From the NCBI GenBank assembly GCA_964016885.1, contig OZ024755.1, forward strand, positions 1,550,001 through 1,614,000: a stretch of 64,000 nt of DNA. The letters run 5' to 3'. Origin of the DNA: Eledone cirrhosa. Lineage: Eukaryota. The notes below the pieces were generated by a model that ran no database searches, was not told the DNA's origin, and saw nothing but the letters and a program-made list of their open reading frames with translations. Position numbers and translations under genes: made by a program. Positions 691 to 44,075 of this stretch are shown in pieces. How positions within the stretch are numbered: the stretch's first letter is position 1; each line of letters starts with the position of its first letter.

Positions 691-3600
691 AGGTTCGTGG
701 CTTAGTGGTTAGAGAATTGGATTCGCAAGCGTGAGGCTGCAGGTTTGATTCCGAGACCAGGTGATGCGTTATGTCATTGAGCAAAACACTTTATTTCACG
801 TTCTTTCTGCCAAGAGTTGCAACCAGTTGATAGTATCTGTAATGGAAACATTGCTTCCTTGCTCCAATTTGATGAGCTCCTATCAATGAAACATAATTTA
901 AAAGATTCTTTTGCATAGAATTCTGTTGGAAGGTTTAAATTTAAATAGGAACACTGTAAAGAGGAAGTTAATTGTATCGGACTGTCTCTGGCAGCTTGCT
1001 ATCTAAAGGGTTATCTTAAGTATAGGGGACTGTCTCCGGCAGCTTACTATCTAAAGGATTATCTTAAGTATAAGGGACAGTCTCTGGCAGCTTGCTATCT
1101 AAAGGGTTATCTTAAGTATAGGGCACTGTCTCTGGTAGCTTGCTATCTAAAGGGTTATCTTAAGTATAGGGGACTGTCTTTGGCAGCTTGCTATCTAAAG
1201 GGTTATCTTAAGTATAAGGGACAGTCTCCAGCAGGTTGCTATCTAAAGGGTTATCTTAAGTATAAGGGACAGTCTCCGGCAGGTTGCTATCTAAAGGGTT
1301 ATCTTAAGTATAAGGGACAGTCTCCGGCAGGTTGCTATATAAAGGGTTATCTTAAGTATAGGGGACTGTCTCTGGCAGCTTGCTATCAAGAGGGTTAAAG
1401 ACATTTGCATGAAACGCAGCAAACTTTGGTAGTTAAGTGGTTCATTACAATATTTTTCATTATATTTTAGATGATACATTTATGGAGCCTGGTGGACTAT
1501 TTGAAGATGCTCCTGTAACTGACGTTGGTATGGAACCTGAAGAACCAGTAACTGAGACCGAGAAACCTCAAGGTATTTCATAAAACCTTTTTACGAACCT
1601 TTCCTCAAATTATTGCCAAGTTAGATACATTGTAGAATTTTTCATCATCATAATAAAACACATGAATTATGGTTTGTCAGGTAATTTGATTACGTATATA
1701 CTATATCTTCCTCCCTTACCTCTCTCTCACAGTGTTGACAAGATGGTCAGTGGTAGAACAACAGATATATTTAACAATGTATCTATCTTTGGATAAGAGC
1801 AATAATCCCAATAGCAGTCTGAAGATAGAACAAAACACTGTTCACTTTCCTGACATTTGTACATTATTCTATGTACTATACATGCACCTTTGATGAGTTG
1901 TAGTGCACCTGAGCACTGTACACAATAATTTTCATTATTATTATGATTTAGTGGATATGTTTCATAACGATTAAAGAAAATATGGGAGAAAATTATAGTA
2001 AAATAAATGTGAAATTAAATATGGTGATAACAGGAGGGAGAAAGTCCAGGAAAACTCAAGAAATTATTAAATAAAATATTTTTAAAACTGAATATTTGTA
2101 CTTTTATTTCAGAAGCTGAAGCTGCTCCACAGCCAGCTGAAGCGAAAGCTGCTCCAGTAGTTGAACCAGAAACACCAGCACCTGAAACAACTACTGAAGT
2201 TAATGAAACCACTGGCACCTCTGGAGAACAAACTACACTTGTTCATAATGAAGATGAGGCATTTGCTCTGGAACCTTTAGATGTCTCGAATATACCAGGT
2301 CAGTTTAGTAGGTATTGATTAAGGTTCTTTTAAATGTTGTCCTTGTTTTAGATGTAGCTTGTGCATGGACTGTTCTGTCAATGTGTCCACCAGTATCTGT
2401 ACATTTTTGGGTTGTATACATTTGTTTTTTGTTTTTATTAAATATTTCACTTATGTTAACTTGCCTTTGTAATAAAATATTTTCAGTTATATTCTGCTAG
2501 GTTATATAGTTATTTATATATTAGTTATAGTGTAAAGAATGTGGTTAGACCCTAACCTTGTCCTCAAGTCTCACCTCTAGCAAGTCTCATAGAGCCTCAT
2601 ACTACACGTGATAATACAGTTTATATCTTGCATCCATCTTTGTCATAATTTATGACATCTAAAGTAATATTAATATAGTATATACATAATATGTAGTGTT
2701 AGTTACATCCCTTAATCATTAGGAAAGATGTTTAGAAATTTTCTATTCTCATATATCTCTTTATCCCAGAGATTCTTTAAATAAATATATTACTTAGACT
2801 AACAAGTTTAAGGAAATAAAGTATATATTGAAATTTTAGGGTAGAATAACAAGTTAAGGAAATAAAGTATATATTGAAATTTTAGAGTAGAATAACAAGT
2901 TAAGGAAATAAAGTATATATTGAAATTTTAGGGTAGAATAACAAGTTAAGGAAATAAAGTATATATTGAAATTTTAGGGTAGAATAACAAGTTAAGGAAA
3001 TAAAGTATATATTGAAATTTTAGGGTAGAATAACAAGTTAAGGAAATAAAGTATATATTGAAATTTTAGGGTAGAATAACAAGTTAAGGAAATAAAGTAT
3101 ATATTGAAATTTTAGGGTAGAATAACAAGTTAAGGAAATAAAGTATATATTGAAATTTTAGGGTAGAATAACAAGTTAAGGAAATAAAGTATATATTGAA
3201 ATTTTAGGGTAGAATAACAAGTTAAGGAAATAAAGTATATATTGAAATTTTAGGGTAGAATAACAAGTTAAGGAAATAAAGTATATATTGAAATTTTAGG
3301 GTAGAATAACAAGTTAAGGAAATAAAGTATATATTGAAATTTTAGGGTAGAATAACAAGTTAAGGAAATAAAGTATATATTGAAATTTTAGGGTAGAATA
3401 ACAAGTTAAGGAAATAAAGTATATATTGAAATTTTAGGGTAGAATAACAAGTTAAGGAAATAAAGTATATATTGAAATTTTAGGGTAGAATAAGTTTAAG
3501 GAAATAAAGTATATATTGAAATTTTAGGGTAGAATAAGTTTAAGGAAATAAAGTATATATTGAAATTTTAGGGTAGAATAACAAGTTAAGGAAATAAAGT

Positions 3601-6492
3601 ATATATTGAAATTTTAGAGTAGAATAACAAGTTAAGGAAATAAAGTATATATTGAAATTTTAGGGTAGAATAACAAGTTAAGGAAATAAAGTATATATTG
3701 AAATTTTAGGGTAGAATAACAAGTTAAGGAAATAAAGTATATATTGAAATTTTAGGGTAGAATAACAAGTTAAGGAAATAAAGTATATATTGAAATTTTA
3801 GGGTAGAATAACAAGTTAAGGAAATAAAGTATATATTGAAATTTTAGGGTAGAATAACAAGTTAAGGAAATAAAGTATATATTGAAATTTTAGGGTAGAA
3901 TAACAAGTTAAGGAAATAAAGTATATATTGAAATTTTAGGGTAGAATAACAAGTTAAGGAAATAAAGTATATATTGAAATTTTAGGGTAGAATAACAAGT
4001 TAAGGAAATAAAGTATATATTGAAATTTTAGAGTAGAATAACAAGTTAAGGAAATAAAGTATATATTGAAATTTTAGGGTAGAATAACAAGTTAAGGAAA
4101 TAAAGTATATATTGAAATTTTAGGGTAGAATAAGTTTAAGGAAATAAAGTATATATTGAAATTTTAGGGTAGAATAACAAGTTAAGGAAATAAAGTATAT
4201 ATTGAAATTTTAGGGTAACTGATACAGTTAGTTGAATACTTGTCTTTTTTAGGGCAAGAAAGAAAAGGTAAACGTAAGCGTAAGCTTATTGTGGATGAAC
4301 AAAAGGGTATTCCAAGTGAAACTATGAAACTGCAGTTAGCTGACACTGCAGATATTATTACTACATTAGATTTAGCACCACCAACTAAAAAGTTGATGCA
4401 CTGGAAAGAAACCGGTGGTGTGGAAAAACTATTTGCTCTACCTGGTCGACCCATAATTTCTAAATTTACATGGCGAGTAAGTAAACACCTTTATATTTAC
4501 TTTTTTACCTTTTCCCTTTGTTTTTTATTTTATAAAAAATTGTCCATTTTCATATTTGATGTTTTCTCTAATTTTTATTTTGTTTTTGTTAAAGCTTTTT
4601 GGTAGAAACCTAATTACTAAACCAATGAATACTGAAGAAGAAGAACATGAAGAAGAGAAAATAGAATTGGAATCACCTGAGTTAGCACGTGATGAAGACC
4701 ATCATCTTGTTCAACCACACCAAAATCTTCATCTTCCATTCCCAGCAGGGACGCCACAAATGCAACAGCAGCAAACTCCTTTACATCAAAATGCACAGCT
4801 AAATCATCAGATGACACCACAACAACTGCAGACAACACTTCAGCCTCCAAAGAGAGGTCAGTATTATTATATTGGAGTCATTTAAACTTCTACTTAAATT
4901 CTTTTTGTCTAACTTAGTTGTTCCCAAACTTATCATTAGAACCCTGATGGAATTTTTTAAAAAATTATGGGAGCCATGGCTATATTCTACAGTTTTTATT
5001 AGAACACTATCTTGCAGCATTCTGGGGTCCCAGAATACCCACTTAGGTAAACACACAGCTCTGGAAAATAACTAATCAGGGGTTTTATGACCATTTACTA
5101 TCTGTTTCTCTCATAACTAGATACCTTATATTTTAATTTTCAAAGTAATAGGGATGTATTTTAGGGGGTTAAATATAATATACTTTAAAGTAAAACTTTA
5201 AGACATAAATTGACAAAATTCCTTGTTTTATTTTATAAATATTGTTGCATATAAATAAAATTTGTTTGTCCCCTCTTTAATACAGGTCAAGGGAAAGCAG
5301 AGGCAGCTCCAGCAGCAACAGCAGCAACTCCTGCCCCTCTCCCTGTCGACTCAGAAGTTTTCCCATCATCAGACGTTTTATTTCCATCTGAAAATATCAA
5401 GCCAGCAGCTGAAGAAAACTCGAGTGTTGTTGAGGAACCCTCAACTGAAACTAGTATGCAATCATCACCTAGTAAAGCATTTGATAAAACTCTACCAGAA
5501 CAAACAGCACAAGCTCCTCAAGGAGAGGATCCTTCAAATGCCACAGATCTTTTTTCAGGCACCTTTAATGATACAATGGTTGATATTCCTGGTGACAATG
5601 ATTCAGTCTATCCTAAAGATTTAGATGATGAACCTCCCTCAATTGCACCCCTTTCTGTTCCCCCTCCATCCTGTGACCCTGCCTCTGTTGCTCCTGCTTC
5701 GGTGCCACCACCCTCATGTCAACTGGTAAGTCATATTTCCTTTCATTTTGTTTTATCTTACAAAAATTCTGTTTTAAGTTTATGTTCCAAACAGTTTACC
5801 ATATATATACTAACCCATGCTAGCGTGGAAAGTGGACGTTAAACGAAGATGATGATGATGATACTTGAATATAAGTTGACCCCCACAGTTTTATATTTGA
5901 GAAATGGGCAAAGATACAAACCTTATTTATGTAGGATTTGAAGTTGGTGAAAATCGCCAAAATCTGTTCCCTTAATCACTGATTTATGTCAGATAAATGA
6001 ATAAAAATCCAAACCTAAAGCAGGGCAGCTAATCAACACATTGTTTACATGGTGAATATAAGCCAACCATTTTACCATCAATTTTTGGGGGTCACATATT
6101 CCTCAGCATATATTCAACTATATACAGTAATTCCTCTTGTTTTCTTACTAATTGATTTTTTAAAAAATATTTCTAAATATTTGCAGACATTTGAAGATAT
6201 TGAATCTGGAGAGTTTGAAGGAGTTATAGACTCCAACTTGGATGATGCTGAACAAGAAAAACAATGGAACAAACGATCTCTTCAAATGCAACATTCATTG
6301 GATATAGCTTTCCGATATAATGAAAGACTTAGTTTCAAAGAACTTATCCGAAAACACAACCGTAAACAGGCAGCATCACGGTTTTACACATTGTTAGTTC
6401 TTAAGAAACATCAGTCTGTTGAAGTGGATCAGAATGAGCCTTTTGGCGATATCTTTGTAACAAAAGGACCTCGATTTGGACTTGTTGTTTAA
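426..6492 (+). CDS. RAD21: Cohesin kleisin subunit RAD21/Scc1, 5'-partial (start lies upstream of window); exons 426-506, 1471-1572, 2113-2298, 4253-4476, 4595-4856, 5286-5725, 6187-6492
   Basis: Phase-consistent GT-AG exons. They translate to RAD21 motifs [18 protein letters not shown] and KRKRKLIVD...[28 protein letters not shown] (STAG/SA-binding region) and the C-terminal winged helix [17 protein letters not shown]...[14 protein letters not shown], ending in TAA at 6490-6492. Confidence 0.96.
688..801 (+). mobile_element. tRNA-derived SINE head fragment
   Basis: GTGGCTTAGTGGTTAG (A box) ... GGTTTGATTCC (B box) ... TTGAGCAAAACACTTTATTTCAC; the same head occurs at 17310-17561, 24242-24525, 28079-28190, 31320-31460, 39500-39846 and 50050-50362. 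Confidence 0.8.
979..1396. repeat. 48-bp minisatellite, ~8.5 copies, in RAD21 intron
   Basis: Unit GGACTGTCTCTGGCAGCTTGCTATCTAAAGGGTTATCTTAAGTATAGG repeated with few substitutions; explains the spurious 16-aa-periodic ORF 1180-1398. Confidence 0.95.
2801..4216. repeat. 46-bp tandem satellite, ~30 nearly identical copies, in RAD21 intron
   Basis: Unit AACAAGTTAAGGAAATAAAGTATATATTGAAATTTTAGGGTAGAAT, with occasional G>A and 2-nt-shorter variants. Confidence 0.97.
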
Positions 6493-14000: not shown

Positions 14001-17000
14001 GTCAGAGATATAATATATCATCTGGTGATAGTCAAGTTCACAGCAATAACATTCGTGTAACAAGGTTATCACATGTTTTCTGAGAGAGAGGAACTAGAAA
14101 CCAGTTATTTGGAAGAATGTTTTAACACTCCCACCCACACCCCAATCAACATTTTAAGTTATCTCTGTTGCTGCCTCCACAAGAAGAGGGGTTCTTATAA
14201 CATAAAATATAGAGTGACAGTTCAGAGGTCAAGTACTGTACTAATATATACAATAGTATTAAACATACTAGTGTCCAGGAAGATAAATAACATTAAAGAT
14301 AAAATGTGGCAGAGGATTAGAAAGTTAGAATTTATGATAGTGTAAAATAAAAGAGTTTATCTAATCAGCTGCTGACATCATTCTTTTCATTGTAATAAAT
14401 AGAATCCCACAAATCTCGTGGAAATTTCCACAAAAGAAAAGTTGTAATACCATCTCTAAGGGACAATGGCCTTACACAGTGATACTATCTAAGGGACAGT
14501 AGCCTCATACACTGGTACCATCTCTAAGGGACAGTAGCCACATACAGTGGTACTATCTAAGGGACAGTAGCCTTACACAGTGATACTATATCTTTAAGGG
14601 ACAATAGCCTTAGACAGTGATACCATCTCTTTAAGGGACAGTAGCCTCACACAGTGGTGCCATCTAAGGGACAATAGCCTCATACAGTGATACTCTCTAA
14701 GGGACAATAGACTTACACAGTGGTACTCTCTAAGTTGTGTATTTGAGGAACAGTAAAGAGTATTGGACGGCAGAACAACAGCTGTAAGATAAGTAGGCTG
14801 GCTGTGAACCAAATAATGAAGTCTGGGACTAATTGACAGCTGTTCTAGAGAGTCTATCTTGGTCAAACATATGTATGGTCCCGTATTGACATACAGCATT
14901 TCTTAAGCTTGGCAGAGCCCATCCCCTCTCCAGGTCTGAATACAGCAAATTTCTTCTAGACAGAGTGTGAGAAAGAGACACACTGGTACTTTATTTATCG
15001 ACTTGGAAAAGATGACCTCGGTGGGATTTGGACTCAGACAACAGAGAGTTGGAATACCACAAAACATTCTATCTGAGGTTTTAATAACTCTGAAAATTCA
15101 CAATTTACATACAAGACATTGATGTATGAGAAACCTTGGAAATGTTATAGATTCTTGTAAACAAACTATAGTTAATATAAATAATGGTGTAAAATAGCTG
15201 ATAATATAGGGGGAAGACAGACATCAGCTGTTGTTTATTGATATATCATACTATCACTGTGTGATTCACAATCATGCTGTGTTAGTGTTATCTCTAATTA
15301 ATACTAATTAGTCAAGCTTGCAATATATGTAAATAAGTTTTCAATAAAAATAGTTTATAAATGCATGAGAGAATTCTAATACATCATGTATTGTGTTAGA
15401 TTTATCTAAATATTGATTTTATTTCTAATTTACCTGAATAAATCTCGTAGGATAGGGGGCAGGGGCAATGCCACATACAGTGGTACTATCTAAGGGACAG
15501 TAGCCTTACACAGTGATACTATATCTTTAAGGGACAATAGCCTTAGACAGTGATACCATCTCTTTAAGGGACAGTAGCCTCACACAGTGGTGCCATCTAA
15601 GGGACAATAGCCTCATACAGTGATACTCTCTAAGGGACAATAGACTTACACAGTGGTACTCTCTAAGTTGTGTATTTGAGGAACAGTAAAGAGTATTGGA
15701 CGGCAGAACAACAGCTGTAAGATAAGTAGGCTGGCTGTGAACCAAATAATGAAGTCTGGGACTAATTGACAGCTGTTCTAGAGAGTCTATCTTGGTCAAA
15801 CATATGTATGGTCCCGTATTGACATACAGCATTTCTTAAGCTTGGCAGAGCCCATCCCCTCTCCAGGTCTGAATACAGCAAATTTCTTCTAGACAGAGTG
15901 TGAGAAAGAGACACACTGGTACTTTATTTATCGACTTGGAAAAGATGACCTCGGTGGGATTTGGACTCAGACAACAGAGAGTTGGAATACCACAAAACAT
16001 TCTATCTGAGGTTTTAATAACTCTGAAAATTCACAATTTACATACAAGACATTGATGTATGAGAAACCTTGGAAATGTTATAGATTCTTGTAAACAAACT
16101 ATAGTTAATATAAATAATGGTGTAAAATAGCTGATAATATAGGGGGAAGACAGACATCAGCTGTTGTTTATTGATATATCATACTATCACTGTGTGATTC
16201 ACAATCATGCTGTGTTAGTGTTATCTCTAATTAATACTAATTAGTCAAGCTTGCAATATATGTAAATAAGTTTTCAATAAAAATAGTTTATAAATGCATG
16301 AGAGAATTCTAATACATCATGTATTGTGTTAGATTTATCTAAATATTGATTTTATTTCTAATTTACCTGAATAAATCTCGTAGGATAGGGGGCAGGGGCA
16401 ATGCCACATACAGTGGTACTATCTAAGGGACAGTAGCCTTACACAGTGATACTATATCTTTAAGGGACAATAGCCTTAGACAGTGATACCATCTCTTTAA
16501 GGGACAGTAGCCTCACACAGTGGTGCCATCTAAGGGACAATAGCCTCATACAGTGATACTCTCTAAGGGACAATAGACTTACACAGTGGTACTCTCTAAG
16601 TTGTGTATTTGAGGAACAGTAAAGAGTATTGGACGGCAGAACAACAGCTGTAAGATAAGTAGGCTGGCTGTGAACCAAATAATGAAGTCTGGGACTAATT
16701 GACAGCTGTTCTAGAGAGTCTATCTTGGTCAAACATATGTATGGTCCCGTATTGACATACAGCATTTCTTAAGCTTGGCAGAGCCCATCCCCTCTCCAGG
16801 TCTGAATACAGCAAATTTCTTCTAGACAGAGTGTGAGAAAGAGACACACTGGTACTTTATTTATCGACTTGGAAAAGATGACCTCGGTGGGATTTGGACT
16901 CAGACAACAGAGAGTTGGAATACCACAAAACATTCTATCTGAGGTTTTAATAACTCTGAAAATTCACAATTTACATACAAGACATTGATGTATGAGAAAC

Positions 17001-20000
17001 CTTGGAAATGTTATAGATTCTTGTAAACAAACTATAGTTAATATAAATAATGGTGTAAAATAGCTGATAATATAGGGGGAAGACAGACATCAGCTGTTGT
17101 TTATTGATATATCATACTATCACTGTGTGATTCACAATCATGCTGTGTTAGTGTTATCTCTAATTAATACTAATTAGTCAAGCTTGCAATATATGTAAAT
17201 AAGTTTTCAATAAAAATAGTTTATAAATACATGAGAGACTTCTAATACATCATGTATTGTGTTAGATTTATCTAAATATTGATTTTATTTCTAATTTACC
17301 TGAATAAATCTCGTAGGATAGGGGGCAGGGGCAATAGACAAGATCCCACATTCACTGACCAAGTGGGGTGAAACTCATCAAATCGGACCAAGGAAACAAT
17401 GTTTCCATTAGTTTTTCCATTGCTGATACTATCGACCGGTCACAACGTGAAAGAAAGTATCTTGCTCATAACATCATAACAGATTGTCCAGTCCAGGAAT
17501 CGAACGCACAACCTCTCAATTGTGAATCCAATTCTTTAACCACTAAGCCACACACCTTCACTTACCTGAATAAATTTCAACATTGATGGATCTGGATCAC
17601 TGGCCCAAATATTTGAAGGTTGTACAATACCTGTTAGGAGTAGAAAATGTCAAAGATATGACAGATGTAACCCTTTTAATACCAACCTACCCGAAACCGC
17701 ACCTGGTTTCTATGATGTAAAACTTCCTATTTTAAAATGTTTAGATTTAAACTAAAATTGTCAATCATAAATTTTATCTCAGAATATTTTGTTAAATGAA
17801 ATTGTGTTCTAAACACCATCTTTGTTCTTCACTGGTTAACGTCCATTTTTCCATGCTAGCATGGGTTACATGAGTTGTCCTGTTATGAGACATACCAGAT
17901 TCGATGACCATGCCTTGCTTATACAGAACTGATTTTGGCTTGGTTTCTATGGCTGGATGCCCTTCCTAATGCCAACCATATTTACATTTATTAAATCCCT
18001 CCAATTTTTTTTTATTAAGTTGAAATCATAGGCAGTATATCTCATCAAAAATAAGGTCAGGGAAGGGTTTAAATTGGAAACCTAAATAAATATTTTCATT
18101 ACAATATTTCATCAAAGTCTATGAAGTCATTATTATCTTAACATCCATTTTACTCATCTATTTTCTAGGAAACAGAAATTGTTCACTAAATACACCCTCC
18201 TGGGTATATTTACAAGCTGTATTAAATCTTCTACATTCAGCGTCAATATTTTACTACAATTGAACATTAAACTTACACAAGCTTCACACAATATATTCTT
18301 TACAGTTAGAGAACTGTTTTGATACCAACAGAGGTAACAGCTTCCTTAATGTCTAAACCATTCTTAGTAAATATAATTTTATTATAACCACTTATAATAT
18401 TATTTACATTAACTAATAATAAGTTATTTAAACTCTTCATGTTTGTCAGTTCATGGCTGCTCATGTACGAACTATCCTTGTAAAACTGACACACAAAATC
18501 AATTTAAATGAAAAACAAATAAATGAGGCCATTTCCACAAGACGTTGCTTCGCATGTTCAGAAGAATTTGACACTAATGGAAATAGAAATACACTATATC
18601 ATAAATAATTTTTGGGGAAGAGTTCCATTAAATTCCTCATTGAATCTGGTGACAAAACCAGTTTTGTATCAGCCACTGGGCGTTAGTTCTTCATCAGAAG
18701 ATAGAAAGAGAAATAGAAAGATAGACGAGTGTATAAAAAGGAAGAAATGAAAAAAAAAAAATGTTATGCAAAGAAAGCATATGTCTGCTTAGTTAGCCAT
18801 ATATATATATTAGGTTAGAAATATGGTGGTGGTGGAGATGATGATAGTGTTGTTGACTGGCTTTAGTGATAGTGGTGATGAAAAAATAATTGAATTGTAT
18901 AACACAGTTAATCTGTGGAGCAACAACAACAATATGGAATAACAATAGTTTTACATTGTAAAGGTTACAAAAAGTAGTTCAATATTAGGTAAAAAGTTTA
19001 AATTTACTTAAAATGTCACAAGGGGGAAGGGAGTGGAGGCCAACTATTTTCTCTGAATTTAACAGGATGTAATGGTGTTTGGATGAAGGACAGAAAATAT
19101 TTTAATGATGCTCAGCTTTATATTCAATACAAACATTTACTAACAACAACTTAAAGAGGTCACTAATTTCATTTTTATTTATTTATTTTGCTAGGTTATT
19201 TTCCCATAAAGACACAAACATATCCTGTAACTTAGCAGTCCGACAAAAGATCAATAAGTACCAGACTTAAAAGTGGTGCCCCAGCATGGCCACAGTCCAA
19301 TGGCTGAAACTAATAAAAGAATACTAAACTAAAATAATAATATAAGAGAGTCTTCTTCCAAAGTAAACAAAACTGTTGGCTTTCATGATGAGTGTTTCAC
19401 TTTTTTGAGCAATGGAACAGTCTGTAAGATATAGGAGAAGAATCAACTCCAGTACATGACTGGTACTTTTGTATTGACTCCGAAATGATGAAAGACAAAG
19501 TTGACCTGGGTGGGATTAGAACATGCTAGTTCTTACTCACGCTGTGTGGAAGATGGACGTTAAACAATGATGAGCTGAAAGCCAGAACAAATACCCCAAA
19601 ATATTCTATCTGATGTTTATAGCTAGTTATAAATGTGGGATTTGAACTGATAGAGCAGAGAGGCAGAACTGACATTCATAGCCAGCTATAAATGTTACAA
19701 CTTGTTTTTGATCCAAATTATTTATTGTTCAACGAGGGAGAGTGTTTCTATAGAAACAGACACTGCCAATATAATGGAAACATTCCACACCTTAAAGTTG
19801 TTTTTCCTCATGTTTTTGTAAACTTAGAAGTTGACATCACAGAACATGGATATTTAGAATAATAATAATCATCATCATCATTGTTGTTTTAATGTCAGCT
19901 TTCCCTGCTAGCAAGGGTTGGACAGGTCCAAATAATAATAAAATCATTAATCACACAGGGAACATAACACTGTTACTAAGTTTACATAAGATAAAATAAA

Positions 20001-22096
20001 AACTGCTTTGTTAATACCTATGACAAAAATTCTAATGATTTGTTTGTGTGGCATTAAACAGATCAAAATATAGGATGAGGTTAACAGGGTTTTATTTAGC
20101 CCAGGTGTGTATTGACAGGGGACCAGTTCCAATAGTATTTCCATAGTATTGTTATTCTCTCTTCTAATGTTATAAACTATGACCTTTGGGTAACTTAGTA
20201 TTCTTTTGTTCTGAATTTGTAATTATCATCATCACCAGTTCCATTGGTCCAATCTGACAAGTTTCACCTTGGTAAGTGAATAAGGTCTGGGATGTTGTTG
20301 ATTCAGATCAATATTGTGTTAGGAAGGGTATCCAGCTGTAGAAATCAAGCCAGAATCAGTTCCCGTATGAGCAAGACAAGGTCAGCCGACTGGACACTGC
20401 CCACAACAGGACAACCCGTCTAACCCATGTTAGCGTGGAAAAACGGACATAAAATGGTGGTGATGACGATATATATATAAGCAAAGGGATATTTAATTTG
20501 TTGTTAATTCAACAAATATATATATTCGAAGCACTCACTCAACAGTTTCCATTTATTAATATCATTGATATATATATATATAGTTATGTAATAAACAACA
20601 TAAGATAATTATTTCATTTACCAGTGGTTTCTTGAAAGCAAACAAAATTTGCTTTCAATCATCAGAATGAAAAAATCCTGGTGTATTCATTGACAGTGGA
20701 TTTTTCATTCTGATGATTGAAAGCAAATTTTGTTTGCTTTCAAGAAACCACTGGTAAATGAAATAATTATCTTATGTTGTTTATTACATAACTATTAAGC
20801 TCTGTAACCTACATAGAGCACTCTTTTTTCCTGAACCTTTCCGACGGAATTACTTCATTCACACACATATATATATACATAATTTCGTCAACATAACCAT
20901 AATCTAAGTGTCTCCGCAAATTTTCATTAAAAAAATATGCATTAATAAAGAAAGTCGCCAATATTCTGGGAGGAGACTGTAATTTGAAATAATTCGAAGA
21001 AACATGGGGGGGGGGGGTAGCATTGAAAAAAGGGAGGAAGGAGACAAGGTGGTGGTGTCATCCAGTACATACACACCCTCCTTCCCTCGGCGACGACCAC
21101 ATCCTAGGAAATTACGAAAAATAAAATAAAACTAAGGCTTGGCAACAGTAACAGTGTCTAGCAGTAACTAAAACATGCAGCCTAAACTAAAATAGAGAAA
21201 AAGAATGAAAGGCAAAGTTAACCTCGGCGGGATTTGAACTCAGACCGTAAAGGGCCGTGACTCTACACTGCATAGCATGTCGTGAAACAATAATGCTGAT
21301 GATTTAAGAGAATTAACTACAAACAATATTTTTATTCCGTTTAACACTCGGACATATTATTTCTGGGATATAATTAGATAAAAATATTTTGGCAACATCT
21401 AATAAAAACAACACAATTTTAAAGGGAACAGAAATTGAAAGAAAATAAAGGAACAACGAAAGATAGGGAGAAGAGACAGACATTCCACCCCAGTCAGAGC
21501 TGTGACACAGCCACAACCACGAGGATAGAATGGCAAAGGTGACACCGTAGAGAATTGACTAAGTGTCGATCTGACAAAAGGAGAAATAGAAGACACCAAG
21601 ACATGGAATTTGTTTCCATATGTACATCACATTTATTAAAGAGGAAAGTGAAAGGAAAACGTCATTTCCTACACATTATATACAGGGTGTCCTCCAAAAA
21701 TGTATACATATATTTATTAGAACACTGTTGAAGTGTGTATACATTTTTGGGACACCTTGTATATATATATTGTCTCCTTTCTTCATTCATAAGTTCCTAT
21801 ATTTGTTTCTACTTTAGGCGCAAGGCCAGCAATTTGAAGGGAAGTGAGGGGAAAGTCGATTAAATCGACCCCAGTACGTTACTGGTACTTTATTTTATCG
21901 ACCCTGTAATGAGGAAAGGCAAAGCTAACATCGACTGGATCTGAGTTCAAAACGTAAAGGGGCGAAACTACATGCCGCAAAACATGTTTTCCGATGTTCT
22001 ACCGACTCTGGCAATTCACCGCAAGATCCTAAATTAAAAAGAATATTAAAGTTTGGATCACTCTATCATCTATCTATCTATCTGTGGGAGAGAGAG

Positions 22097-22177
<81 letters not shown>

Positions 22178-22516
22178 CTGTGTGTGTGTGTGTGTGTGGG
22201 AGAGAGAGACTGTGTGTGAGAGAGAGAGTTAATTATTTTAGTGAGAATATTTTTGATGTTCCAAAGATGGAGAGTTAGAAAACATTAAAATTGATATTCT
22301 ATAATCGAGTCTAAAAAAGACTCGATGGTCATGGCTGGAGCGCCTTGGATCAGCCAAGACAGAACTGGAGGTAAATATTATCATGGTTATTAAAACTATA
22401 TCGGAGATATAACGGTAAAGTGTGTTGAATGTTGAATACAAAAGTAATTTATTCACCGACAGCGTTAATTAAATATGTGACAGGTAGTTGGTAATATTAC
22501 TTTATCTAAGACTACA

Positions 22517-22563
<47 letters not shown>

Positions 22564-22858
22564 AGAATGGTTGCTTGGATGCGTCCATAGGCGGTTTGCC
22601 GGTTGAGCACTCTATGCTCCTTTGGAGCAGAGTATAATAATAATATGGAAAACGAAGAATCGGAACACAATTTATTACGTATTACAATTGTTTCTCCGGC
22701 GAACAGCTCGAGGTACGATCTGGACTCTGGTTCGAACCTGACTCTGGATTCGCAAGTCCCTCAGATCCATTAACAGATCGCACCTCGAGCTGTTCGTCGG
22801 AGAAACAATTGTAATACGTAATAAATTGTGTTCCGATGCATCACTGATTCTTCGTTTT

Positions 22859-22892
<34 letters not shown>

Positions 22893-23638
22893 ATTGTGCT
22901 TCTAACCATTCCAGCTGTGGTTAGAATTGCCTTTCATTTTTACAGATCTATAAAATAAAATACCAGTAACGCACTGGGGAATTTATTTAATCGATTCTCC
23001 CCTCCCCTTTAAATTGCTGGCCTTGTGCCCCAAAGTAGAAACAGTTATAATTCTATTCGTATCTGCGGTGCCTTATAGAGAATCTGCTATTTTTTATTGA
23101 GCCCCTTTCTGGCCAAAAACTCTCTTTAATTGCCAACTTGTCAAATATTTATCAGAGGTCATATATAGGTAGAGGCCAAACGGCTCAGTCGTACATTCGC
23201 ATGTTTTACTTACATATTGTCTTTTAGTTTTGAAATTTTAGAAAACAAACAACTATATTTTAAGAAACTAAAATATAAGACTCGTAGAGAACAAACAGAT
23301 AAAATTCTTGGGGGAAAAACACAAACCCCTCCCAAAACAGATGCGATTAAATTAAAATAAATCGCGAAATTTTGAAGTTATTTACATTTTTACCACAACA
23401 TAAATGTCAAATATAATTCAAAGATTCTCAGTAAATTCTTTGATTTAAATGAAAAAGTAGAATATAATGTTGTATAAATTAAAACAAAGAAGGAAGGAGA
23501 AAAACATAGTTTAGAGATGAATGAGAACCTACCTCCTGTAATAAGGCCTCTAGCCATGGCCTGGGCCATGCGACCAGCACCGAGAAAACCAACCATGATA
23601 TTGGCTGGGATGTCGCATCGCTTTCGTCTATTCGACAT
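11080..23638 (-). CDS. PYCR3: Pyrroline-5-carboxylate reductase (ProC family, PYCR3-like: 6 exons, no C-terminal tail), 280 aa; exons 23533-23638, 17566-17630, 12776-12955, 12276-12488, 11720-11812, 11080-11265
   Basis: Rossmann motif [12 protein letters not shown]; FIAVKP; VSIAAGI; RVMPNTP; [10 protein letters not shown]; [15 protein letters not shown]; [17 protein letters not shown]. All introns are GT-AG with consistent phase, total 843 nt. Family assignment is secure; PYCR3 versus PYCR1/2 orthology is less so. Confidence 0.9.
13338..13523. mobile_element. piggyBac-like MITE family 1 copy
   Basis: TTAA-CACTAAGCATTTA ... TAAATGCTAAAGGG-TTAA; internal sequence shared with five other copies. 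Confidence 0.8.
14448..14732. repeat. ~30-32-bp minisatellite (ATCTAAGGGACARTAGCCTYACACAGTGRTAC), also carried in the 933-bp repeat units
   Basis: About 9 degenerate tandem units. Confidence 0.9.
14537..17335. repeat. 933-bp tandem triplication in PYCR intron 2 (units 14537-15469, 15470-16402, 16403-17335)
   Basis: Identical ORFs at 14594, 15527 and 16460 give a period of 933. The third unit differs at a few positions (e.g. AAATAC/GAGACT versus AAATGC/GAGAAT). Confidence 0.97.
17310..17561 (-). mobile_element. tRNA-derived SINE with 14-bp target-site duplication (TTACCTGAATAAAT, 17296-17309 and 17562-17575)
   Basis: Minus strand starts GTGAAGGTGTGTGGCTTAGTGGTTAAAG...CGTTCGATTCC (A/B boxes) and is flanked by a perfect direct repeat. 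Confidence 0.85.
20612..20672 (-). ncRNA. Type I hammerhead ribozyme motif, minus-strand copy (sense to PYCR pre-mRNA)
   Basis: Exact reverse complement of 20703-20763, lying in the left arm of the palindrome 20580-20795. Confidence 0.75.
20703..20763 (+). ncRNA. Type I hammerhead ribozyme motif (Penelope-like), plus-strand copy
   Basis: Stem I TTTCATT/AATGAAA; core CTGATGA 20710-20716; 11-bp stem II TTGAAAGCAAA/TTTGCTTTCAA; GAAA 20744-20747; short stem III ACC-act-GGT; GUA cleavage triplet ending at 20756. Confidence 0.75.
21683..21759. mobile_element. Tc1/mariner-type mini-MITE
   Basis: TA-CAGGGTGTCCTCCAAAAATGTATACA ... TGTATACATTTTTGGGACACCTTG-TA: ~25-bp imperfect terminal inverted repeats (TIRs) with TA flanks. 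Confidence 0.75.
21815..22025 (-). mobile_element. Second SINE family (core GAGTTCAAATCCCGCCGAGG...GGTCGATAAAATAAAGTACCAG); other copies near 24797-24895, 26415-26508, 33445-33545, 42485-42618, 48850-49075, 56225-56545, 60318-60480
   Basis: Recurrent dispersed sequence with A-box-like TGGCAGAATCGG, B-box-like GAGTTCAAATCC and a shared 3' end CCTTGTGCCAAAAGTAGAAAC. Confidence 0.75.
22643..22864. repeat. Fold-back inverted repeat (arms 22643-22722 and 22774-22864), probable Penelope-like terminal-repeat remnant
   Basis: ~80-bp arms with 2 mismatches and an 11-nt insertion; both arms carry GAAACAATTGTA followed by AATAAA pointing outward. Confidence 0.85.

Positions 23639-29174: not shown

Positions 29175-44075
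<14,901 letters not shown>

Follow-up and report, generated by a model that had tools for sequence, protein, structure and literature searches.

How does a palindrome with a complete ribozyme motif in each arm come to lie in an intron, and does it serve the host gene there? The question is raised by the window (the whole 64-kb stretch of Eledone cirrhosa DNA analysed here), in which a sequence-only reading had noticed an inverted pair of type I hammerheads within intron 1 of PYCR and had proposed that the fold-back neutralizes a harmful self-cleaving site and could act as a conditional switch. We favor a different answer, with a probability of roughly 85%: a Hydra-clade Penelope-like element (PLE) inserted 5′-truncated copies of its 3′ end head-to-head at this site, and the hammerheads, which a predicted 98-bp hairpin would bury, are likely to be neutral passengers. 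This reading builds on family membership, two ends, a junction and copies with open RT/GIY-YIG frames, all of them read from the assembled sequences. As a single locus the palindrome is transposon debris of a described type and matters little.

Sequence comparison reproduced the inverted repeat with its arms (20580–20678 and 20698–20795), its one indel and its 19-nt spacer; outside the indel the arms are identical in 95 of 95 bases. PYCR lies on the minus strand and its exons match Pfam F420_oxidored and P5CR_dimer. With the end of coding exon 1 at 23533, the only candidate for exon 2 that fits is 17630–17566, which bears out the placement in intron 1, numbered by coding exons; the insertion is approximately 2.7–2.9 kb away from either splice site. 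The extent of the feature has to be corrected (Table 1): the arms stand as described, but the insertion runs on to 20859 through a one-sided tail of 64 nt, which in full-length copies is the segment between the 5′ hammerhead and the open reading frame (ORF). Likewise, the spacer (20679–20697) has the size given, but by nature it is upstream sequence of the element itself, with a variant base of its own, and the indel sits in the junction homology. The two copies overlap at the junction by exactly 4 nt, or by approximately 7 nt if a one-base slip in a T run is allowed, and it is this homology that accounts for the single indel. Copies of the family adjoin (AT)n or (CA)n at their ends; a target-site duplication is not discernible within the microsatellite flanks of the insertion.

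Table 1. The insertion, its hammerhead motifs and its surroundings (positions in the window).
Feature	Positions	Strand	Basis
PYCR intron 1 (numbered by coding exons), host of the insertion	17631..23532	-	exon boundaries, Pfam
(AT)n target microsatellite at the tail-less left end; last bases common to the element end	20568..20582	.	sequence
Tail-less copy of the element 3′ end (pLTR), read on the PYCR strand; includes the 19-nt spacer	20580..20697	-	matches positions 162-286 of natural copy L010
Type I hammerhead motif, sense in PYCR pre-mRNA; predicted cut 20619/20618	20612..20672 (read 20672-20612)	-	structural scan
Head-to-head junction	20698..20707	.	4-nt exact overlap vs reference; comparison with family sequence
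Right arm, start of the tailed copy of the element 3′ end	20698..20795	+	sequence, family alignment
Type I hammerhead motif, antisense to PYCR; predicted cut 20756/20757	20703..20763	+	structural scan
64-nt tail, right arm only	20796..20859	+	family comparison
(CA)n/(TA)n flank at the tailed end; first few bases may be the element's	20860..20880	.	sequence

Each arm contains TTTCATT, CTGATGA, an 11-bp stem II, GAAA, ACC-ACT-GGT, a GTA triplet and AATGAAA, and thus the CUGANGA and GAA core, the NUH triplet and the three stems, with stem I open, of a type I hammerhead. A structural scan of both strands of the 64-kb window returned these two motifs only; the hammerhead motif that had been claimed for each arm is present. 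The cut at 20756/20757, which had been named as the place to look for 5′-OH ends, is on the antisense strand; the site predicted for the PYCR pre-mRNA is 20619/20618 (minus). The covariance-model scan that had been suggested as a check came out negative, with no hammerhead family of Rfam at E ≤ 10; its miRNA matches are sub-threshold hairpin look-alikes. The G10.1–C11.1 pair beside the core is absent from this motif. The caveat that stem II begins with U-A was right in so far as T/A is present, but this is not a conserved pair of the family: among 201 motif matches the first stem II “pair” is T/A in 91, C/A in 64 and A/A in 31, and it is unpaired in 13 of 31 aligned motifs. We regard it as a trait of the clade and a known variant, most Hydra-clade hammerheads listed in the supplement of PMC8557442 having stem II flanked by one additional base on either side.

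The 9-nt stem III has a calculated energy of +0.4 kcal/mol as a hairpin and of −8.2 kcal/mol as an intermolecular duplex, and a dimer folds with −38.0 versus 2 × −14.3 kcal/mol for the monomers. In the same folding model the 3-bp stem III of the isolated motif is formed about half the time, and some monomer activity would be possible. Dimeric PLE hammerheads are reportedly the subject of work by Lunse in 2017. The calculated energies would fit selection on the motif in the source elements, and the hammerhead is likely to be kept for processing the RNA of the element itself, probably in dimeric form or aided by a protein, rather than for the host gene.

The record of the copies was read from an alignment of 31 motifs, namely that of the window, 29 of 42 distinct matches (from L111–L170) and one added by eye; the other 13 matches, which are second arms or broken by the junction, were excluded. 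Stem covariation, the lack of which had been named as an argument against a ribozyme, is found in stem II, with two-sided changes at 7 of 11 pairs that reflect approximately three subfamilies rather than 31 events. Stem I has one-sided changes only and stem III is invariant. N7 is T, C or G across the copies, and the remaining core bases have scattered changes only. Core mismatches (15/444) and flank mismatches (92/3099) were counted in inserted copies of any genic position: the core decays like its flanks, with nothing to suggest that the host protects or purges it.

The genome search for a parent element led to a Penelope-like family. An exact 30-mer of the hammerhead has 2165 matches in the genome as compared with none for the reversed control, and a DNA search yielded 1541 candidates; the 40 that were scored have 96–100% identity. 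The family has two fixed 3′ ends, one directly after the arm (3832 pattern matches) and one 64 nt further on (1874 matches to a pattern that enters the tail), and the insertion in the window has one of each, ending short at 20580 and with the tail at 20859. The tail-less end is also seen among the raw reads of three RAD runs, as loose (AT)n ends. The proposed origin from a Penelope-like pLTR with inverted duplication is supported by longer copies (L031, L032, L055, L060), in which the same pLTR leads through its tail into an RT/endonuclease ORF, broken in these copies. All ten stretches fetched around long-ORF matches have an open frame of 714–718 aa beside a sister hammerhead with N7 = G. The 714-aa frames carry YRDD and VVY...YVG motifs, with RT followed by a C-terminal GIY-YIG domain in a single ORF; Atlas neighbours of the 714-aa protein carry GIY-YIG and RVT_1, and the parent ORF gave no significant match to Pfam and PDB sequences.

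Judged by its motifs, the parent is a young member of the Hydra clade of EN+ PLEs (Craig et al., 2021; PMC8557442); the reference Hydra proteins were compared as printed text. The protein motif set given in section 11 of that paper recurs here, with RWK, DKT, a CxCx5C linker and CxxC plus CxH around E and N, and there is no CCHH inside GIY-YIG; by eye, the L178 protein has RMRWK, SDKT, CSCRKPDEC and CSLC...CPH. Also shared are the C-terminal position of the GIY-YIG-type domain, insertion into (TA)n and a 3′-end hammerhead of the form ctgatga-N ... N-gaa with a palindromic stem III of 1-nt loop. The family differs from the clade as described there in its clear pLTRs, its tail of 64 nt instead of the usual 30–40 bp, and its length: Hydra elements generally have less than 3 kb, but here 3.4–4.7 kb separate hammerhead from hammerhead with an ORF of 2.1 kb, which is due to a microsatellite-rich 3′ UTR. 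Hydra-1_Obim from Octopus bimaculoides, which is included in the supplement, has another hammerhead sequence and a protein that, compared by eye, is clearly related and not the same, so that our family appears to be distinct from it. The pLTRs, the inverted 5′-truncated copy and the one-ended tail are those of an EN+ PLE insertion.

Several other assignments were considered and rejected: the Naiad clade, the endonuclease being C-terminal; a MITE or miRNA precursor, the arms being truncated retroelement ends with unequal termini; and a non-LTR retrozyme, for which direct tandem repeats of 200–400 bp would be expected, the pair here being inverted. Among the first 100 of the 2165 30-mer matches listed, the nearest same-strand matches are 0.7–11 kb apart. 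Metazoan non-LTR retrozymes (PMC7229834) are similar in having a type I hammerhead with a short palindromic stem III suited to dimers. As described there, however, they are direct tandem repeats that give rise to circular RNA, whereas here the motifs are on opposite strands and cannot form a dimer within one transcript.

Some observations on the family stand apart. More than 12 copies with 714-aa open frames (contigs C1, C3, C5, C7, C12, C28 and others) have near-identical scores, which suggests that the sister subfamily expanded in a very recent burst. Copies with open frames in ten stretches (L177–L186; for example L178:4136–4232, L179:4049–4146 and L183:4097–4193) contain a third, diverged hammerhead-like motif approximately 460 nt past the stop codon, in which the CTGAAGA/GAAA core is intact and the cleavage triplet is GTG. 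This motif could be either a relic end or a partner that does not cleave but forms dimers with the terminal ribozyme. L177 (G000:C1:330096200-330106100) is a head-to-head arrangement of whole elements with two 714-aa frames on opposite strands. Related subfamilies in L116, L123, L131, L134, L148 and L150 have the element end and stem III in common, and their stem II is longer or GC-richer with compensatory changes.

The formation of inverted pairs was surveyed in 168 stretches (the window, L002–L030 and L033–L170), most of them from one end of contig C1, in which copies lying head-to-head within 700 nt were counted. Of 77 such pairs, 74 combine a tailed with a tail-less copy, one has two short ends, two are unclear and none has two tails. 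The only pair that is tail-less at both ends (L121) has at its centre a perfect palindrome adjoining both hammerhead cores. In the set anchored on the hammerhead 30-mer alone all 28 pairs are mixed, whereas the end counts predict approximately 44%. For the remaining sets one of the ends served as anchor, and the pairs include a few duplicates (two in L093; L129 and L130). The arms of a pair differ at 28 of 615 subfamily-variable sites versus 34% in shuffled pairs (minimum 25% in 2000 shuffles), as determined for 63 of the 74 pairs, 11 having been dropped with less than 85% identity to the reference. Since the arms share subfamily variants, both come from one source, and two separate source templates as the rule were rejected; two RNAs from one source copy are possible. 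At the inner end, the tail-less arm extends upstream of the tailed one by more than 10 nt in 28/74 pairs and the reverse holds in 10/74; in the other 36/74 the two ends lie within 10 nt of each other. An exact overlap of at least 4 nt is present at 23/74 junctions (3–5% by chance) and none at 39/74, and 17/74 have more than 10 extra bases. Tail-less ends also terminate direct, non-inverted full-length copies.

Twin priming is known from L1 elements; in the open-licence literature we found no application of it to PLEs. Tentatively, and at odds somewhat short of even, we propose that inverted Penelope insertions are the product of twin priming at two RT start sites on one source RNA, followed by microhomology joining. 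In the window, the enzyme of the element would cut both strands of the (AT)n tract in PYCR intron 1, and one cDNA would be primed from each strand, both on RNA of one source element. The distal start site would yield the tailed arm and the proximal start site the tail-less arm, and the two short cDNAs would then join through a few complementary bases. Such priming of both target strands at two start sites would fit the one-tail rule and the staggered arms. The closest parallel is the Poseidon element of Anolis, PAc (Frangieh et al., 2024; PMC11167929), whose enzyme cuts and extends both target strands and which likewise has two RT start sites bounding the tail, an AT-rich target and a pLTR hammerhead. 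PAc belongs to another clade and its hammerhead overlaps the ORF start, whereas here the motif is approximately 270 nt upstream of the ORF; the passages on two-strand extension state no link to inverted copies. It should be noted that the 36 pairs with near-equal inner ends are equally well explained by a fold-back and that central deletions could mimic the stagger.

A competing route differs in the formation step alone and would be consistent with a neutral stub: one strand of the same element would prime itself by folding back and would then be trimmed by the endonuclease, sometimes with a central deletion. We consider it conceivable but rather doubtful. Self-priming on an antisense template has been proposed for PLE inversions (PMC3846280), and PMC8557442 lists the formation of inverted PLE ends among the open questions. 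The common source of the arms is as expected for a fold-back, the near-equal inner ends are often at local palindromes, and the short end coincides with an ATT-like site resembling those that the Anolis enzyme cleaves (PMC11167929). A simple fold-back, however, predicts nested arms, the tailed one containing the other; in 28 of the 74 pairs, this one included, it is instead the tail-less arm that extends further upstream, as compared with 10 pairs in which the tailed arm does, and these 28 contradict it unless later deletions intervened, and direct full-length copies also close with tail-less ends. The strict one-tail rule together with the staggered arms is in any case a countable constraint on the integration mechanism of PLEs. 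If twin priming is true, it replaces the antisense self-priming proposal, and burial of the ribozyme follows from the mode of insertion itself and might favor such copies in introns; an octopus family with open 714-aa frames makes twin priming testable in vitro.

The caging geometry that had been described was upheld by the fold models. Both copies face outwards, and caging would therefore be automatic: on either strand the antisense arm is ahead of the ribozyme, which is predicted to be buried. The host-strand RNA of the palindrome has −162 kcal/mol (z-score −24; 0/100 shuffles as stable), and in the model of the PYCR strand 60 kcal/mol separate the active fold from the more stable ensemble at the point where the motif has just been completed, a gap that widens to 72 kcal/mol for the whole hairpin. 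This does not mean that the host has any use for the caging, which is likely to be a side effect of the mode of insertion. Indeed, a neutralizing role is countered by the fact that the inverted geometry is a routine product of the family (77 pairs in 168 stretches), that unpaired complete hammerheads are commoner than paired ones, and that cores mutate like flanks. Among the 78 loci found through the 30-mer, 56 complete motifs stand unpaired, as compared with 26 pairs that have at least one complete motif (17 with two, 9 with one); the 56 include some with partners 3–5 kb away, and the counts are not split by genic position.

A host filter, by which lone sense hammerheads are purged from introns and self-caged palindromes of the same origin become enriched there, is in our view unlikely. 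It could draw on the caging predicted for both strands, on a stem III that is present about half of the time in the model of the motif alone, with some monomer activity possible, and on the under-representation of Xenopus retrozymes in introns noted in a recent preprint (bioRxiv 10.64898/2026.07.22.740005). Against it are the 56 unpaired motifs versus 26 pairs, counted at any genic position, and the lack of an excess of core-breaking mutations. In addition, the metazoan PLE hammerheads described as tested are weak or inactive as monomers or depend on protein (PMC4209133; PMC11167929), and cleavage by intronic hammerheads reportedly does not block splicing (PMC2995048, citing Dye 2006 and Fong 2009), so that there may be little to neutralize.

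Long AU-rich duplexes are substrates of ADAR, and A-to-I editing is heavy in cephalopods. A conditional switch, in which the intact motif would cut the PYCR pre-mRNA once freed from the duplex by editing or a helicase, nevertheless appears very improbable. With every A of the antisense arm edited in simulation (8 draws per level), the active fold would still be less stable by 57 kcal/mol (I as G) or 19 kcal/mol (I as unpaired); at 50% editing the gap would be 66 or 46 kcal/mol. Editing would also strike adenosines of the core (21/61 nt are A), and the copy is young (arms 95/95), one among many and with no sign of locus-specific conservation. Differences seen in contigs and RAD reads are variants between copies rather than edits. 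An assembly artefact from a fold-back read can hardly be entertained: although none of the reads of three RAD runs and contigs spans the locus, the matches being mostly to other family copies, the asymmetric ends equal the two natural ends of the family, the spacer is element-derived with its own variant base, and 73 other pairs have the same plan.

The preferred reading, a truncated inverted insertion with buried hammerheads, is in line with what the cited papers describe, opposite-strand hammerheads, inverted truncated copies and a one-sided tail being already in print. For example, minimal hammerheads on opposite strands 100–700 bp apart are described from Schistosoma (PMC4209133), and inverted truncated copies with the tail at one end in PMC8557442. 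The inverted 5′-truncated pLTR insertions in PMC3846280 and PMC8557442 are likewise head-to-head, with a palindrome or microhomology at the junction and a one-ended tail; the difference is that the one-tail rule is counted here (74/77) and that the staggered arms argue against simple self-priming. Among the first 100 of the 2165 30-mer matches listed there are 13 close pairs, from which we extrapolate that the family supplies hundreds of near-perfect RNA hairpins, and these could be substrates for editing or small RNAs where they are transcribed.

The window has some further features. Three identical 933-bp tandem units lie inside PYCR intron 2 (14450–17100), either a young duplication or an assembly issue. 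Minisatellites with units of 48, 46 and 41 bp are found at 920–1447, 2670–4300 and 36539–36866, respectively. Directly upstream of PYCR and on the same minus strand is an MCM-family gene (29175–40109; Pfam MCM and MCM_lid), which we take to be MCM3-like. Within it a dispersed repeat pair of 269 nt (31670–31938 and 39510–39778) is 95% complementary and could possibly form a long-range RNA duplex.
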